Shown in pieces: positions 49,897 to 60,300 of a DNA stretch of 64,000 bases. The translations under genes were made by a program, and so were the position numbers. Numbering within the stretch: position 1 is the first letter of the stretch; every line of letters begins with the position of its first letter. Where the stretch lies: assembly GCA_004022145.1 (NCBI GenBank), contig RCNU01000007.1; one strand, 5' to 3'. This stretch comes from Paecilomyces variotii. Its lineage: Eukaryota. The notes under the pieces are model-generated. The model was not told the DNA's origin. It saw only the letters and a program-made list of their open reading frames with translations, and searched no databases.

Positions 49897-50445
49897 CTAA
49901 ACGCGAATGAGAATCGGTAAAATCTGCTGGATATCCGTACTCCCGTCAGCTGAGAGCTGACGCAGGGATTCCCGGTCTTCAAGAATGTGATCGATTGTTT
50001 CCGCCCTGCCGGAGGCATGGTAGATTTGAGCTATCGCCGCGTGGGTCTCGAGGAGAACACGACTAGGCAGCTGAGTCCTATTGCCGTGCGGCTTAGAAAA
50101 ACGAACATATTCTGCGCGGCCATGGGAACGCTTTCTGAGGGCGTTCCGCGGGAAACGAGGGTACGTCTTGATCTTGTAGGTGTGCTCTTCATTCTGGTTT
50201 AGTGAGCAGAAATTCTTTTTGTATAATTTTAGGTTTATACTAACCGTGCTTTCAAAAGCCAGCTTCAGTTTGCCCCATAGCTCGTTGAGAATGGGGATCA
50301 TAATCATCGTATTTGTCGGTTCGTTGATCAGATCTGGTTTTATGACGTCCTCGAGGTCGGGAAACAAGGCAGAAAGCGTAGTCCATATATTAACGACATC
50401 GTTTTCCTGAGTATTAAGATTAGAAAGTTTGGAATAATAAGAGAT

Positions 50446-50525
<80 letters not shown>

Positions 50526-51194
50526 AAAGAAGACGTACCTGCTCACGGGTCTCGTACACTCCAAGGGCAAATGGTATTATATGAGATAGGTTGGTAGGAT
50601 ACATGCCATCATCGTACTCCTCGTCCGAGATGTCGGGGAACTTATCCCGGCACTCTGCCGCGTAATGATCAGTAACAACACAGCGATAATTGTCTCTTTC
50701 AAGACAGATCTTTTTTAAGTTCTGCTGATCGTTCTGAGAAGAAGATTCTACCATTTCTTGGGCGACATCGTCTGGGCGTCCAAAAGGAGAGGGTGTTACA
50801 GTCTGGTTCTGACCTCCGCAGGCTCTCACTAGAATTTTTCAGTGTTAGCCATATTATAGAATTATATGTGAACAATAATTACTATAAAATAAAGGATGAA
50901 CTTACTTGGAGCTAGAACCGCGGTAAAAAGATGGTGTGATAGCTCCTTAAGAGAAGTCATCTCAGGATGCTCGATGATGTATTGACATATTGTCCGTTTT
51001 CCAAGAGCCGGCAAGAAATCGATAAAGCTTTGGATGGTCTTCGCAGTGCAGTCTGTACCATAAGAAAGACAATACTGAGAAAGGATCTCGCGTGCTTCTT
51101 TTTCTTCTTCGCAGACACTGGCTGGATCCGATGATAGAGAGGAGATGGAATCGCTTAAATCACTTAGTTCTTGTGTTAGCTGAGACAAAGTCAT
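49897..51194 (-). CDS. Fungal HNH-family endonuclease (HNH_2-like); exons 51194-50906, 50828-50539, 50406-50245, 50193-49897
   Basis: LKKICLERDNYRCVVT...LSHIIPFAL...INEPTNTMIM...KLAFE...LPSRVLLETHAAIAQIYHASG. Three GT-AG introns splice into one open frame. Confidence 0.85.
50446..50527. repeat. (AAAG)n tetranucleotide microsatellite in HNH intron 2
   Basis: About 20 perfect AAAG units read directly. Confidence 0.95.
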
Positions 51195-51404
51195 CGTGAA
51201 GGCTTGGCTGCAGATAGAGAATAGGGTCTGATGGTTCTAATTGATCGAAAAGCTAGTTGTCGAAGCGAGGCTGGATGAGTTAGTTGGAATAAAGGCAGTT
51301 AAGAGTGTCCAAGGCGAGAACTTTGGTGAGGTCAGAGAGAAGTGTTCCGCGATCCCGTTCTTGCTTACCTATTTAGGTAGCTACCATACCGGTCCTTGGT
51401 TGGG

Positions 51405-51845
51405 ACTTTAAATGGTAAGAACTCGGTCGAAAATCGGTAATTCAACAAAAAGGGTATACTACGAAGTCGACATGTTTAACAGAAGTATTTAAAGAACATT
51501 AAAATTATTTAACGTTGTGTACTTCTAACGTTAGTTATGTAAAAGGTATACGAATCGTCTTATAATTGAAAGGTAAACGAATTCGGAACGTTACCAAAAG
51601 GTTCCTAACGGTTCAGCAAATTCAATGTTCGGACTAGTTTTCGAACGTTTAATCTGTTGCTTAATGGTTTATTCTGTAAACGTTACTACTTCAAAAGGTA
51701 TTTGGAAGGTTAAGAAACTGTTATAAACGTTTTGCATTAGTAACATTAATTTTGCTAACCGTCGAAGAATCGATTTAAATTGTCAACGCTGCTAATAGAA
51801 AACGGTATACGGTCGGAAACGCTAGACAGATTATTACGTAAAAAC
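51405..51845. repeat. Degenerate array of AACGTT/AAAGGT/AACGGT motifs (putative transposon subterminal region)
   Basis: Over 20 related hexamers, e.g. 51511, 51527, 51542, 51569, 51587, 51597, 51607, 51644, 51663, 51679, 51694, 51726, 51801. Confidence 0.6.
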
Positions 51846-52091
51846 CGAGGAATGTCAATATTTAAACATGCTCTCCAGGTCAAACCATTGCAGGATCGCA
51901 CGTTCATCTTGTATCATATTCAGATAACCATACATCTCTAAGATATAACGTCCCATTGTCCTATTCGAATGTTGCATCATTATGTGACATTCGACCCGTC
52001 ATCCTATGTAATTCGCGCCACTATCGTCATTAGCTCGAAGTCTCAAGATATTTCCACTATGCACTTACCTTATTGACAGTGCGTGTCCTAT

Positions 52092-52163
52092 GTACCTCTC
52101 GCGTACCTCTCGCGTACCTATCGCGTACCTATCGCGTACCTATCGCGTACCTATCGCGTACCT
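52092..52163. repeat. 11-bp tandem repeat GTACCT(C/A)TCGC x6.5
   Basis: Two GTACCTCTCGC, four GTACCTATCGC and a partial GTACCT, read directly. Confidence 0.97.
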
Positions 52164-53598
52164 TGTTAAAGCCGAGTTAATTCCCAAAAAAAGTAATAGA
52201 TCTATATCTTATGGTGTTGAGAAATTGAGCGACTAAGGGTTGGCCTTAGCAAAACATTAAGGTTACTTAGTCTGTATAGTACTTTAAGTTAGTTAGAGGT
52301 AGTCCGGCAATGTGCGTGCGTAAGAATTTCCTTAAAAGATAGGTATATATAACTTATAGTCGGCAAGTTAAATATTGTTTATATTCATAACATTTTGCGA
52401 GTATTAAAACATATATTAAGCTAATATTATTTATCTTATAGTTTAAAATTATATTATTAGAAGTGTAATTATTATTAAGGTTAAGTATCCTAATGCCGCA
52501 ACTAGTTAGTTATATACCTAGGTATCTTAATATTATAACTAGTTATTATAATAGGTAGGATATTAATATAACTCTTAAAAAATCAAAGGGGAAACTTAGG
52601 ATTATATATACTCTCTAATTTATCTTAGGAGCTAGTAATCTTTAATATCTCTAATATAGGGTCAGTGTTTCTATCTATAAGGGATACCTCTAAAAAAGCT
52701 ATTTAGTATTATATTTATTACTAATATCTAGATTAAATAGCGCTTAATTTAAAAAGCTATATATATTAGCCTATTATTAGAGATATATAGCCTATCTTTT
52801 ATAATCTATTTGCTTTAAATAAGTTTAGCATATAATTATTAGATTAACTTTAAAGACTAACTTTAAGGATTAATTTTTAATATACTTATCTTAAGACTTC
52901 TATAATTCTAGATAGTAAGTATTATTATCTCTTTAATTTACCTTTTTAATAAAACGGGAATATATTTATATCTTTTATCTAGGATCCTTTTATTATTATT
53001 TTAGTATTAGTATTTAATCTATATTAAATAATTAATTAATACTTATTTTATATAATCTGTATCTTATAATAAGACTTTAACTTATATTTATAGGTATTAT
53101 TACTATTATTATATAAAAATTAAGTAAAAGAAGAGAGAGCACGCAATTTTAATATATTTTTAAGGAGATAATATATTTTTAAAGAAGTAATATCCTTTTA
53201 ATAAAGGAATAGCAGTTATTATCTTATATTAAAATAAAGGGAAGATAGATAAAATAGAATTAGTTACTTAAAGTATTTAAATAACTATATAATATTAGAT
53301 AGATAAGAGAAAAAAAAAAGCTATATTAAGATAAAGAAAAGAGACTAAAAAGAAGGGCTTAGAGAGTAAATTATAAGAGATAAAGAACTGCTATAGAGTA
53401 AGATAAAACCTTATTTATTTAATACTTTATATTATATAGTATTTATTATAAAAATATAAATATTAATAGCTAGCTAAGAGTCTCCCCTTTAATCTTATTA
53501 TTTATATATATAAATTAGTAAGACTATTAATACTACTATAAAAGTCTAATATATTAAATCTAATATATTCTAATTCTTAATATAACTCTATATAACTG

Positions 53599-56500
53599 CT
53601 AAAAAAAGTCTATTTCTTATATATAATTTAATAATTTATCTCTATTAAGCCTAAGAATATTAATTTTATATCCTTAATATTATAATACTTAAGTAATAGG
53701 AATTATATATAGCCTTATTATTTTTATAAAAGCGAGCCCTATAATATCTATATCCTTATTATCTATATTATAGATAGATAAGGCTAGAAGCTTATTTATT
53801 ATAGGATAAGAGGTTTTAAGATATATTATTCTAAAAAAGATCTTTAGGTATTTTTCTTATAGTTTATATATAAATATCTTATCTATTCTCTTAATTCTCT
53901 TTTCTTAAAATCTAATATAATTACTATAAGATAAATATATTTAGAATAAATTATCTCTATAATAAACTTTTTAATTAGATATTATTCTTAATTAAACTTA
54001 AAAACTATAATAAACTTATTTAGGGAAATAATTAATCTTTTAAAACTATTTTAATAGAACTAATTTGCGTTCTATAATTATATAATTCCTATAATTTAAG
54101 CTATATATACTATAAAGAGCCTTTAAAAATAGATTAAGAATAGGGAGAAGAGATAAATAAAAAAAGATACCTATCTCTTTAAAGATAAGCTTTAAGGGGA
54201 TTAAATTCTAGATTTATACTATTTTGTATTTTACTATATCTAAATTAAACATATTAATATTATCTCTATTCTCTTTAACTAGATATATTTATAAAAGATT
54301 TATAAAGAATTATAGATAATTATTATAAAGATTTATTATATACTAAATAAGCTTAGATTTAATATTATTATATATCTTTTAAAGAAGTAAAAGTAATATT
54401 CTTTAAAAACTTTCTTATTATAATAATATCTTTTTAATATCGCAGTAATTTATTTAACGCATAAGCTATTTATAAAACCTAAGGAATTAAATTAGATTAA
54501 TTTATATATATATATTAATTCGGAGTTATTAATAGGCTATTTACCTATGTTTATCTTCGCTAATTAATACATTACAGTTATTAGGGACAGCATATTCCTT
54601 TGCTTAATTAACATAATGTAATCTAATGTGTATATTTGGCCGACACTTAATAGCGTAATATTCTTGGCTTTTCTTTATTTCCTATAGGCGACTTATCCAA
54701 ATAGAAACCTCTAAGCCGGCAGGTAATGGGCTTCGTGATATTCGTAAGACAGAATTAGATCGCGATTTAGCCGGGCGAATTTCTTCTGCAGCAACAGCTG
54801 CGATCTCAAGTAGTGTTTATATCCCCTTACGCCCTTCAATGATAATTTCTCTTAGTTTGTGTCTATCGTACTTACTCATCGATCGCTATGCAAGCACTGA
54901 ATTACTCTTGGCTATCGACGCGAAAATACCAGTGACGAGGCTAACGGGCGAATGAAGTAGATATATCTTGTCGATAAACTGCTTTAATGCTTTTAAGTAA
55001 GAAGAGTCAAACTAGTTTTTATTAAGACAACAATGAAGAAGCAAAGGAATAATAATCGATGCGCGTGCATGTTCTTGTAGTTGATAGCTCTCGAGATAGG
55101 TTACCGGAGATTATAAGCGACCCTATCCTGAAGGAAACTAGAACTTTCGAAGAGCAGACAAATATTCGATTTTCCTATTTGGTGATAATATTGTATTAAC
55201 TAAAAGAGAATGTGCTGTCTTTAATATCCCTGCATATTCTGAATAACACAGGTCTAATAGGAAATAAGTTATAAGATTAAGACTGGGTGCTATCTGCAAT
55301 AATAGCGATTTTTACTTTGCGATACTATATTTAGATAATAGCTTCTTATAAGCAATTAAACTACACATTTCTGTAATTATTTAAATATTAATAGTTTAAT
55401 AGTAATAGCGACTAAAAAGCGTAGTGTTATAGTCTAAGTTTAAGCAATCTTTCTCAGTCGCAAGATATTAACAATATCTACAATTTGCTGTCTGTCTTTT
55501 AATACCGGCATTATCCTATTACTGTAGCATATCCCTAAGAAATATATGCACATATACTACTAGCTTAGTCTTTTCTCCGCGTATCTTAGTCTTAATACTA
55601 TAATCTAATTGTAAAAGCCTTTTTAGGGATAATATTATATTAGTAAAATTACTTCTATGCGGTCCTAATATAATAGAATAGATATTATTATATTTAGCCC
55701 TTTCTACTGCATTGAGATAAGCTAGGATTATATAGATTCTTATTAGACTTTAGTATATATTGCGGTATAATCTAAAGCTATTAATAAAGAGCTAATATAG
55801 AAAAGATAAACATTTCCTAGCAAAAAAGGTATCTACTAGTTGCTTCCTTCTATAGGTTGCAATCTCTAGTTCGTCGCGTAGAGGTGTCGTTAGACAAAGA
55901 GGGCGAACTGAGGTAATATCTTGATTAACTACTTGTCGAATAAGATATCTATTAGTTAGTTTAATAATACGACTCGAAAACCCATTTTAGAATTAATAGT
56001 CGAAAAGGACTATTTTTTCCCGATAGAGAATATCTAATTCCGATAAATACAGGTATCTATTCTCATAGATTATTAATTTATTTTCCTTAAATAGTAGACC
56101 CGTGCTTTTAAGTAATATATGTAAATAATTAGTTATAGCCTTATAGTTAATAAGTTTCTGAAGCTGTAATTTTATACTCCCCTTGCAATTAGTATTAGAC
56201 CTATAATCTTTTCCCGCAGCTATAATACGCCTAATATAAGCTTATAAGTTAGACGATTAGCACTTAAGTCTACAGGTTATATTAGAATATTTATAGCGAA
56301 CGATATTAGAAGAAAATATTAGTTAGTTATTAGCAGAATATCTACTAAATTCGCCTAATATTAATTATATAGATCCTGCCTATAATAAAGACTCCTATAA
56401 TTCTGCAGAATAATCTATAAAGTAAGCTATTTTTATATATATCTTTAAGAGATCTTAAGACTTAATAAAAGCGATAAAAAGCGCAATAAAGTCTAAAAAA

Positions 56501-57300
56501 ATATATCTATTATATTAAAGTTTTTATAAGTTATTTTTTTATAGTTAATAATATAGAAAGTTATATAAATATAATTATAATTTTTATTTTCCTTACTAAT
56601 AAAAAAGGGAATTACCCTTTAATATAAACTTTTAGAATTATTAGGGACTTTAAAAGTCTATTAATCTTAAATATATCTTATAGTATATTTAGAATTTCTA
56701 GGAGAGTAATATATTAATAATATAAGATACCTATATTCTTATATTATAAATTAAGAAATAATATAAAACTCTGTAATATTTCTTAAAACTAAATTTATAG
56801 AATTTCTTTAAAACTATCGAGATCTTCTCTAATTAAAGATAGACCTAGTAAGGGTAATATAAATAATAATATATCTAATACTTGCTTAAAAGCAGGCTTA
56901 GGTTTAATAGAATTCTTTAATTATTTATCCTTAAAAGCAATATCTATTATAGTATTATTAAGCAAATATAATAAATTTTTATAAGATAAATTTATATTAA
57001 TATTCTATATATCTTTATATATATTTAAATTGCCAGCCTATAGATTAGTTAGTTTTTATTATTTACTTAAATAGCTATAAGGTATAATAGATATTAATCT
57101 TATTATTAAAAGATTTTTCTAATTATACTAATATTATTCTGCTTATTTTTATAGACTATTCCCTTTCTATTAAAAATATTAGCTTATCTTTATATATTCT
57201 TTACTAATAATATAATCTATCTAATACTGGACTTAGATCTAGATACTCTTAGTCTTATATTCTACTGCTAGCAGTATATTACATATACTTTTTTAAAGAG
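53599..57300 (-). mobile_element. RIP-inactivated large DDE transposase gene, CACTA/EnSpm (CMC)-like; 5' end approximate
   Basis: Reverse-strand translation with TAG/TAA read as W/Q/R and C>T/G>A reversal gives LWxExxGISR (about 56720), ELWxSxSWAGSVRSTSGEF (about 56380), LFIDGFGLYRNMYxSLMGIY...TLGPHGSNF (55790-55650), GDMPQQQDNAGIKRQTANCGCRxC (55536-55465), FPSGWGRLQSP (about 55120), RPNxHIGLHY...NCNVLIGEDKHR (54645-54548, then a GT intron) and a C-terminal CTWEIDFF-stop at 53599. Confidence 0.75.
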
Positions 57301-60300
57301 TAAAATCTATACCTAGATATTTTAAACTTAAGGAAATAAATATTAAAAATAAAATATTGCTAATAATCTATAGAATATATTAATCTAATAAAAAATATTA
57401 TTAATTATATAAGCGAATATTTAGTAAGACTTAAAGTAAAATAATCTTATATTCTAATAAGGTAAAAGTATAAAAGTAAGGTTATACTATGTTATAAAAT
57501 AGCAGTTAGGACTAGCAGTTTCTTATATAACTAAGATTTTGCTCTGAGGAAATCTTTAAGAATAATTTTATTATAGTAAAATTAGGCGGCTTAAAAAAAC
57601 TACTTCCTAGGCCTTTATAAAAAAAAACTATTGCCTTAACTAAGAATATATAAATATACTTTATATTTATTATATGTGCCAATATTTTTTTTCTTTAAAT
57701 ATTATTAGCCTTTTAAGCTATTAGATTAGTCTAAGAATTTTATTTAAACCTATTCTTTTTAATTAGTTATAAGCCTAGGTTTATAGTAACTTAGGAGAAA
57801 TAGCTATATAGCAAAAATTATTTTATTTTAAATATTTAAGTTTAAACTAATAATAATAAGCTATCCTTATATAAGAGGACCTATAATAAAACTGCTCTAG
57901 TATTATATTAGATATTAAACCTAATAGAAGTTAGATTTTATTAAAGATTAGAAAATTAATTTATTATTATTATATCCTTAATAAAAGATAAGAATAGTAA
58001 GAGGGGTAAATTAATTTTTATTTTTTTAAGGGAGAATTATAAGATATAGTTTTTATATATAAAAAAGTAGCTCTTTAATAAGAATTGCTAGAATACTATT
58101 AAATTATTTAAAAAAAAAAGCTAAGATAAGAAAATGTTTAGAAAGACTAATATAATTATATAATATTAAATTATTAAATGCCTCTTAAATAGTAATTAGG
58201 AGAATTTTATAGATTTATCTAGTATAGAGAATTTATAGAAGGGATTATAAATAAAATATAAATAATCTCTTTTTACCTAGAAATATTAGCTTATTTAATA
58301 ATATATATAATTTTAAATAACCCCCGGACAGATAATTTTAAATACTTAGGAATAACTAGACTTAATAGGGAAGAAAATTAAGATATATAATAAAAATATA
58401 TCTTCTTTAGCTGAATTTAAAGCTAAGATTTAATAATTATTTTTAGCCTTATTTAAAAAATATGCTATTACTAGAATAGTAATTAATATATAAATAAGCC
58501 TAAATATAGATAAAATCTTAAGTATTTTAGAGGAGGTAAAAGCCTAACTTTAAATAAAGCTAATTATTATATTCTTTATTAAAAATAAATAAACCTTAAT
58601 TAAATATTATATCTGTAAGAAAGATTATTATATTAAAGACTGCCTATTTTTACCTATTATTTAGAAAAATATAAGAGATAGCTAAAGATAAAGAAAAGAG
58701 TTTTTTAAATAAATATTTAATAGTCCTATTATCTAAGATAAGAAGATAATAGACTTAATTATTAAAATCTATAAAAAGGTTTAATCCTTAAAGAATAAAA
58801 GATTAAAGGATAGAAAGTATAAGGTATATAAAATAAAAGAAATTTTAGACTCTAAGAAGAGCTAATCTTAATTAAAATCTTTAACTTTAGTTATTTTTAA
58901 TAATTAAGTCTTATATAAGATTATCTATTTTTTAAAAGATATTATTAATAAGAATTTATCTTAATAATATATAAATAATAATATTAGTTTATATATAATT
59001 AATAAGAGCTATTGCTTTAAAGAACTATTAATTTAGATTTAATAAAGATATATTTATATAGGTAGAGAGATCTTATATTTAGAATATATAAAAATAGCTA
59101 TTTTAAGAAATAAGAATAAGAAGGGGTTAGACCTAGAAAATATACTATTTATACTAAATCTTAGGGTAAATCTTTTATTAATTAAGATATTCTACTAATA
59201 ATTAAATATATACAGGTATTTTAATAAAAGAATAATATTTATATTAAATAAGTTAGATAAGGTTATAATTTAAGGTATTATTAAATATAGAGTCTATATT
59301 ATTAAGAGGGTCTTCTTAGACTAAATGCTAAAGTTATAATATATGCCTATTGTATTATTATTTATTAAAAATGCCTTTAATACTATAATTATAAACTAAG
59401 AAAAAAGATTTTTTTAAAATAAAATTATTCCTTTATTTTATTAAAATAAAATTAAGAAGAAGTATTAACTATAGTATAGGAGAATTAGCTATCTTAGATT
59501 TAAAAAGGTTAGAAATTTATATAACTTAATTATATTAAAGAAATCTATTAAAGTAATAATAGATTATTAGTATATAATATATATTATAGCTAATATTAGA
59601 AATAAAAAAGAGACTATTAATATATAAAAGGCTGGCATTCTTAAACTTATCTATATAGATATATATAGTTAAATGCTAAAGTTTAAAGATAAATATATCT
59701 ACTTTTTAATAATTATAGATAACTTCTTAAGAAAAATATAGGTATTTCTAATAAAAGCTAAATCTAATACTGCCCTTATCTTAAATAAATAAAAAAGGGA
59801 GATTAAGATAATAATAGGTCTCTAAATTCTTAGTATATAATTAGATAATATATTAAAATTTAAGAATCTTTTTAAGACTTAAAGGAAATAGTTTAGTATT
59901 TACTATAAATTAATAGTTTTATATATATTAATATAAAATAAAGCTATAGAATAAGTATATTAGACTATTAAAAAAAAATAAGAGCTATACTTAAAAATTT
60001 AAACCTTCTAGTTAAATTATAGGTAGAGATAGTTTAAACTAATATATATATTAGAAATAGAGTATTAAATAGACTAATAGTTAATAGGATTTAAATATTT
60101 TTAGAAGAAGCCTTTATTAGAGCTAAGCTGTTAATTAATTACTTAAAAATATAAAGATATTAAATAGTATTATATATAAACCTAGAATCTTTACTATAAA
60201 ATATATAAAGGGATAAATTAATAGATTAAAGTAGAATCTATATTTTTATAAAATATATTAAAAAAATAGATAAATAATAAAAAGTTTAGGCTTTAAATAT

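Follow-up and report, generated by a model that had tools for sequence, protein, structure and literature searches.

At 51411-51845 of a 64-kb stretch of Paecilomyces variotii DNA (the whole of which is called the window here), short related words such as AACGTT, AACGGT and AAAGGT recur far more often than in the sequence around them. They sit at the border of two compartments. Positions 1-50000 hold housekeeping genes (SNF5, PDS5, cofilin and a mitochondrial carrier) at about 50% G+C, and an AT-rich block of 15-31% G+C runs from about 52300 to the window end. AT-rich blocks of P. variotii are described as RIP-mutated transposons (PMC6300479). A sequence-only reading had taken the words for a helically phased, transposase-binding array, with a structured or processed noncoding RNA as the less likely option. 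What, then, is this array, and to which of its two neighbours does it belong?

We conclude, with a probability of roughly 0.78, that a dead DNA transposon, related to CACTA/EnSpm elements (the CMCT clade) and resembling the Plavaka and ESTA groups, has its 3' terminal repeat and subterminal region at 51384-51845. A boundary, homology of the terminal repeat, remains of a transposase and arrays of this kind in intact relatives carry this conclusion, and all four are demonstrated below.

Density, orientation and spacing of the motifs

The following two features describe the array.

51411..51845, no strand assigned: subterminal motif array of AACGTT, AACGGT, AAAGGT, AATGGT, AACGCT and related words
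51511..51731, no strand assigned: core cluster with six palindromic AACGTT, from motif counts

Six of the nine AACGTT copies in the window lie in the array, starting at 51511, 51527, 51587, 51644, 51679 and 51726 and thus falling within 216 bp; the other 63.5 kb contain three. When the 441 bp were shuffled with dinucleotides preserved, AACGTT appeared 1.09 times on average and at least six times in 2 of 5000 shuffles. To correct for the word having been chosen, all hexamers with two or more G/C were considered, and some such hexamer reached a count of six in 10 of 3000 shuffles. The wider AANG(G/T)T family numbered 18 in the 441 bp as against 4.0 ± 1.9 in shuffles, none of which (0 of 5000) reached 18, and its maximum on either strand among 3126 other segments of 441 bp, the RIP block included, was five. 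The recurrence of related hexamers that had been noticed by eye therefore stands far above the background set by dinucleotide-preserving shuffles. In the neighbouring 12 kb of heavier RIP DNA there was no AACGTT, and family words did not exceed five per 441 bp.

All non-palindromic words were found in one orientation, on the plus strand (AAAGGT 4:0, AACGGT 2:0 and AATGGT 2:0), and the array contains six AAGG as against no CCTT. ACGT occurs six times in the first 350 bp of the element and is absent from 51982-56499, and AACG is the G/C-containing 4-mer of the window with the strongest subterminal enrichment. A degenerate 26-mer of the array had no match in the metagenome collection.

The sequence-only reading had described spacings of 10-11 or 15-16 bp. 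Among 16 consecutive AA[C/G]G gaps, five measured 15-17 bp, as against a mean of 1.1 under a uniform null (P about 0.005). This excess arises from a three-motif module with spacing of about 16 bp, and we read the pattern as such a module, advancing in steps of about 16 bp and occurring at 51511, 51663, 51726 and 51785, and not as a higher-order tandem repeat. Only about 6 of the 16 positions in each unit are kept, and the spacers are free. For overall periodicity, the best spectral peak (15.25 bp) had a power of 106, whereas the 95th percentile of the null was 113.5, and the array gave no spectral signal near 10.5 bp (10-11 bp). The 15-16 bp spacing is thus borne out locally but the 10-11 bp spacing is not, and helical phasing has to be given up.

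A 152-bp higher-order repeat had also been suggested. The likeness at this lag proved to be a local one of 48 bp, with 31 of 48 positions identical; over the full 152 bp only 52 positions agree (34%), and lag 152 is absent from the top autocorrelation lags. Lag 215 is stronger (z 4.5), with mismatches comprising 8 transitions versus 30 transversions. Because these are mostly transversions, a recent tandem duplication degraded by RIP was ruled out as the source of lag 215.

A transposon end at 51383/51384

The array adjoins the following features.

51382..51383, no strand assigned: TA dinucleotide, probable target-site duplication, of which only the left copy was found
51384..51440, minus strand: terminal inverted repeat CCATACCGGTCCTTGGTTGGG..., the 3' end relative to the transposase, aligning with the termini of relatives L004, L006 and L001
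51582..52282, no strand assigned: 701-bp stretch, in place of which another copy (X4 record 18) has 69 other bases

From 51382 the window reads TACCATACCGGTCCTTGGTTGGG; here, the left end of a RIP-degraded DNA transposon reads TA followed by CCATACCGG... (51382-51384), and the array lies 28-460 bp inside it. Contigs of other public runs (X4, X9, X10 and X11) that match the window gave a view of other copies. The match to X4 record 18 begins at 51383 and that to X9 record 21 at 51382, at about 88-90% likeness, and the left flanks of these two contigs are different and unrelated. A diverged X9 contig is alike up to 51383 and continues beyond it in unrelated sequence; it looks like an unoccupied related site with one TA. 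Exactly at 51383, the RIP index TA/AT jumps from 0.86 on the left to 1.53 on the right, and (CA+TG)/(AC+GT) drops from 1.26 to 0.42-0.51. Contig ends, the switch in RIP indices and terminal-repeat homology together set a transposon terminus at 51383/51384. Given the read-derived boundary and the homology to the termini of relatives, 51384 is the 3' terminus of the transposon.

The TA at 51382-51383 is probably a target duplication, with its left copy alone in the window. Among the relatives, L006 is flanked by TA at both ends, L004 by TA at the left end and AA at the right. Since TA is palindromic, it could equally be part of the terminal repeat; the X9 contig that resembles an empty site favours a duplication.

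A search for an inverted counterpart at the other end of the element had been proposed as a check. Neither blastn nor RIP-tolerant alignment located one within the 64-kb window: blastn returned no second copy or inverted counterpart of 51300-52400 within the window, and the alignments scored at best 33.5 with the window's own terminus (null 34.6 ± 3.5) and 33 and 39 with the L006 termini (nulls 32.6 and 33.5). For the 16 nt beyond the empty-site-like X9 junction, the window has three matches, each with 3 mismatches, which is the chance level. The sequence at 56480-57800 is too degraded to read.

The array had further been called unlike RIP DNA in composition. Its G+C content is 34%, and its CpG observed/expected ratio is 2.1 versus 0.67 in the adjoining RIP block; in this respect the description is correct, but the indices do turn RIP-like at 51383. 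The transposon ends of un-RIPed relatives have a TA/AT of 0.9-1.7 and a (CA+TG)/(AC+GT) of 0.8-0.9, and are natively AT-rich (37-39% G+C), with indices that are RIP-like in part. Part of the RIP-like composition of the array is thus native to such transposon ends.

The copies differ in their interior. X4 record 18 passes from 51581 through 69 other letters to 52283-52700, which indicates that array and AT-rich block are parts of a single repeated unit, with 51582-52282 extra in the window's copy. This 701-bp stretch holds four of the six AACGTT, the non-RIP-like segment 51846-52090 and an 11-bp tandem repeat. The absence of this stretch, and with it of those four AACGTT, from another copy means that some of the array may have arisen later, by expansion or insertion within the element. 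Past 51510, substitutions separate the X9 copy from the window (three G-to-A, one C-to-T and one A-to-T), and one of them leaves the first AACGTT as AACATT. The main organism of run X11 has 51331-51570 beside the gene with 4 substitutions and differs past 51570; a low-depth X11 contig is without 51608-51806.

Two local features of this region were also recorded. The segment 51846-52090 is a 245-bp island of non-RIP composition (TA/AT 0.65, (CA+TG)/(AC+GT) 1.32) between RIP-like flanks, and it falls inside the 701 bp that are swapped for 69 bases in the other copy. At 52092-52163, inside the transposon, the 11-bp unit GTACCTATCGC is repeated 6.5 times in tandem (98% matches). A contig of run X11 skips 33 bp (three units) of this repeat, indicating that its copy number differs between strains.

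Remains of a transposase

One feature of the AT-rich block represents the coding part of the element.

53602..56499, minus strand: RIP-wrecked Plavaka/EnSpm-like (CMCT clade) transposase, collinear with L006

For the protein search, the minus-strand frame 54472-56331 was read through with stops as X. It matched 12 proteins, the best 11 at E values of 6e-144 to 7e-103 and the 12th at 2e-83. Precomputed annotation lists PF18759 (Plavaka) for 3 of the 12, and a Pfam rescan gave Plavaka at E<0.01 in 7 of the 12, at or just under the cut-off: P0011 scored 25.3 bits against a curated cut-off of 26.3, and the L004 frame scored 21.9 bits. By tblastn, the window contains pieces at 56499-54544, 54480-54019 and 53961-53602, collinear with L006; the first ~250 residues of the transposase were not detected in the window. 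In the RIP block, Pfam scans of 21 short frames produced a single stray match (0.024), and six whole-frame read-throughs with X produced none.

In an alignment of the 12 homologues, C587/C590 and H871/H875 were invariant or nearly so. The wrecked frame of the window retains both pairs, C-x2-C as ANCRYC and H-x3-H as HIRLH. These motifs are given as signatures of the CACTA/EnSpm-Mirage-Chapaev-Transib (CMCT) clade (PMC12730594), and by these two signatures the element belongs to that clade. Behind the transposase, L006 and L004 have frames that are homologous between the two elements and also to sequence in the window. They matched no Pfam family, and no separate TNPA-like gene was found among them; they look like C-terminal exons of the transposase.

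Arrays in relatives with intact ends

Scanning of metagenome contigs with the transposase alignment yielded 26 related loci (L001-L026), which are 34-55% identical to P0011 over their best segments. Several contigs of 5-6 kb end near the ends of the element, as expected for a multi-copy active family. Recognisable termini were present in only three loci (L001, L004 and L006), and the other 23 had none; terminus-like words in L009 and L010 extend only 10-12 nt and were treated as chance.

L004 and L006 are contigs from soil-type metagenomes. L006 is a complete 4.9-kb element with inverted termini of about 45 bp at 85 and 5005, reading CCATGCC...GGCATGG; both ends carry CTACCATGCCGC(C/G)GCTTGCTGGTTC... 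in inverted orientation, or in fuller form CCATGCCGC(C/G)GCTTGCTGGTTC.... The 5' end of L001 is the same as that of L006. L004 is a 5.3-kb element with terminal inverted repeats at both ends, and its 3' end reads TTCCATACCGGGTTTTGGTGGG.

In L006, ACGT occurs 11 times in the two 350-bp subterminal parts as against 5 times in the 4219-bp interior, a 13-fold enrichment (P 1e-6). Similarly, L004 has 9 in the two 350-bp subterminal parts as against 8 in the 4622-bp interior (7-fold, P 1e-4). Among 140 strand-symmetric 4-mers, ACGT ranks second for subterminal enrichment in L006 and third in L004. The words around this core are particular to each family: ACGTA and CACGT in L006, GACGT and TACGG in L004, and AACGTT and AACGGT in the window. 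Homologous arrays near other copies of the transposase, which the sequence-only reading had looked to, are thus present in these relatives as ACGT-core words.

The 5' subterminal ACGT array of L004 is split by a near-perfect palindrome of about 220 bp at 178-400 (arms of about 100 nt, MITE-like).

The neighbouring HNH-like gene

To the left of the terminus lies a spliced gene on the minus strand.

49897..51194, minus strand: coding part of the HNH-like gene, with introns at 50829-50905, 50406-50537 and 50194-50244
51271..51368, minus strand: 5'-UTR intron of the HNH-like gene, from the table of contig joints
51369..51390, minus strand: first known exon of the HNH-like mRNA, from a spliced X10 contig (joint 51270/51369, GT..AG)

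Contigs of X9 and X10 show GT..AG joints on the minus strand at the introns of this gene, and its mRNA therefore runs leftwards. With the start codon near 51194 and the first exon at 51369-51390, the array lies upstream of the gene. The upstream 7 nt of that exon (51384-51390) overlap the transposon terminus, so that transcription either starts inside the element or reads out of it. More tentatively, the HNH-like transcript may now take its 5' end, and possibly its promoter, from the transposon end. RNA contigs cover the array little or not at all in comparison with the contig of the gene, with depth being no measure by which parts of the locus can be ranked.

Homologues of the product are hypothetical proteins of P. 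variotii; a distant homologue in A. fumigatus carries PF13391 (HNH_2), and a Pfam scan of the gene's own frame gave no match. This is a flanking host gene outside the element, and the link once proposed between array and nuclease comes down to the adjacency of a host gene and a transposon end.

Several observations concern the gene itself. The intron at 50406-50537, built round a (GAAA)n/(GAAAGAAG)n microsatellite, keeps the reading frame and has no stop, so that a six-frame reading fuses the exons into one frame of 313 codons. In the main organism of X11, the 5'-UTR intron has at 51325 a 16-nt insertion, GTGAGGTCAGAGAGAA, which seems to duplicate the bases before it in tandem, and lacks 4 nt at 51366-51369. 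Contigs of X4, X9 and X11 contain diverged look-alikes of 50007-50175, in the 3' part of the gene, that have other flanks and differ at 24-25 positions per 117-169 nt; one of them is joined to a look-alike of 51331-51383. This suggests partial paralogues of the HNH-like gene.

Discussion

Comparison with known systems places the element near several groups. Of the features of the CMCT clade, terminal inverted repeats are present at both ends in L006 (~45 bp) and L004, and the window has one homologous end. A target-site duplication of 2-5 bp, another feature of the clade, would be represented by the probable TA duplication. The 5'-CA..TG-3' termini of the clade differ from those found here, in which CA stands at positions 2-3 of CCATGCC...GGCATGG (TACCATG with the TA). 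Plavaka is the only Pfam family matched by the transposases of intact relatives, at or just below the cut-off; C-x2-C and H-x3-H are common to both, and target duplications are short (2-3 bp), the one here being probable. By contrast, the termini described for Plavaka A (TGT..ACA) and Plavaka B (CATCA..TGATG) (PMC12730594) are unlike the CCATGCC found here.

The ESTA elements described in the same paper make TA duplications; as printed, their consensus sequences open with CACCA(C/T)GGG termini, behind which stand arrays of short CpG words particular to each family (PMC12730594). In its supplement, the printed start of ESTA-1_PCor has 5 AACGTT within about 240 nt of the terminus, counted by eye, and ESTA-11_PHord has a CAACGT array; the word 'subterminal' does not occur in the main text. 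The element in the window resembles ESTA in its TA, its terminus ((TA)CCAT(G/A)CCG(G/C) here), its CMCT-type transposase and its dense arrays of CpG words. It differs in that the leading CA of the ESTA terminus is missing, and in that ESTA is described from Pucciniales whereas the element here is in a mould of the Eurotiales. The likeness to ESTA is judged on termini, TA and arrays.

Subterminal repeats of CACTA elements are described as asymmetric, family-specific, bound by TNPA and required in cis for transposition (PMC2613891). The element shares with En/Spm the many copies of a short, family-specific motif within a few hundred bp of the ends, unevenly arranged between the two ends. En/Spm, however, ends in CACTA, duplicates 3 bp, repeats a 12-bp motif and has TNPA as a separate protein. 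The transposase of the hAT element Ac binds subterminal AAACGG hexamers. Here too, CpG-containing hexamers with an ACG core are repeated in the subterminal ~250 bp, but the hAT transposase, hAT-type termini and 8-bp duplication of Ac are not present. No hAT family was found in the 37 + 4 frames scanned (of 61 long frames at 1-52200), and the terminus does not fit YARNG.

Taken together, three lines (a density above that of shuffles, arrays in relatives and an adjoining terminus that is defined in three independent ways) sustain the sequence-only reading's view of a transposon subterminal array. On this explanation, a cut-and-paste element would have inserted at a TA beside the HNH-like gene and would later have been degraded by RIP. 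The AACGTT-type words would be the subterminal repeats of its family and, by analogy with En/Spm and Ac, multiple putative binding sites for a protein encoded by the element, which may have marked the ends and helped to bring them together for excision. That the words served as protein binding sites is the most likely interpretation by this analogy, and the single orientation, the CpG core and the ~6 kept positions per unit between free spacers fit it. Against the explanation stand the single end identified in the window, the four AACGTT missing from another copy, the divergence of X11 past 51570, the Plavaka score just under the cut-off, the metagenomic origin of L004 and L006, the recognisable termini in only three of 26 loci, and the word itself, which differs between relatives, being AACGTT here, ACGTA in L006 and GACGT in L004. 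Stops throughout the transposase make the array a fossil today, and since this copy is dead, it can act today at most on its neighbour.

The nearness of that neighbour raises another explanation, namely that the array forms part of the promoter of the HNH-like gene, as a homotypic cluster of ACGT-core sites for transcription factors (bZIP or Myb type), and that no transposon function is needed. From the furthest 5' end known for an expressed, spliced mRNA, the array does lie 20-455 bp upstream, and the main organism of X11 keeps 51331-51570 beside the gene with only those 4 substitutions. However, the sequence to the right of 51383 is found elsewhere with other flanks, the region carries a transposon terminal repeat, similar arrays flank intact transposases with no such gene nearby, and the non-palindromic motifs all face one way; among the papers listed for AACGTT in Aspergillus, none was evidently about such a site or factor. 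We regard a promoter cluster of this kind as unlikely, and a later co-option of the array as promoter is compatible with the transposon explanation. It is slightly less likely again that the array is a functionless by-product, either a decayed minisatellite of 16 or 48 bp or a set of words that survived RIP. AACGTT and AAAGGT contain no CpA/TpG and are immune to RIP, the indices are RIP-like, the 16-bp spacing recurs, and three to four units of ~50 bp are alike. Against this, dinucleotide-preserving shuffles fail to give the counts, the 12 kb of more heavily RIPed DNA alongside lack AACGTT and stay at or below five family words per 441 bp, un-RIPed relatives have arrays too, and a decayed repeat is hard to reconcile with the ~6 of 16 kept positions per unit and with 8 transitions versus 30 transversions among mismatches.

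A structured or processed noncoding RNA linked to the nuclease-like gene is the least probable of these explanations and can practically be set aside. Short, low-depth X9 contigs over 51495-51645, guessed to be RNA, are all that speaks for it, but Rfam had no match at E<=1 and folding energies were ordinary on both strands (z -0.45 and -1.21).

As an extension of the transposon explanation, the CpG-centred ACGT words might be methylation-sensitive binding sites with which a hitherto undescribed, TA-inserting, ESTA/Plavaka-like transposon lineage in moulds would sense the epigenetic state of its ends, the fossil end then having become promoter and first exon of the HNH-like gene. We put this forward as speculation, with the odds clearly against it.

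Subterminal arrays of binding sites are textbook knowledge for CACTA and hAT elements, so that the structure of this array is of an already known kind and general concepts are unchanged. What the locus provides is a concrete cis-element, an AACGTT/ACGT array with a CCATGCC repeat and a TA, for poorly described fungal transposons related to En/Spm, Plavaka and ESTA, and it shows that this group reached the Eurotiales. With the array and terminus as markers, such elements and their non-autonomous derivatives can be annotated in AT-rich, RIP-degraded blocks in which protein searches fail. The locus also offers a testable case of a dead transposon end that forms the 5' end of a host transcript.
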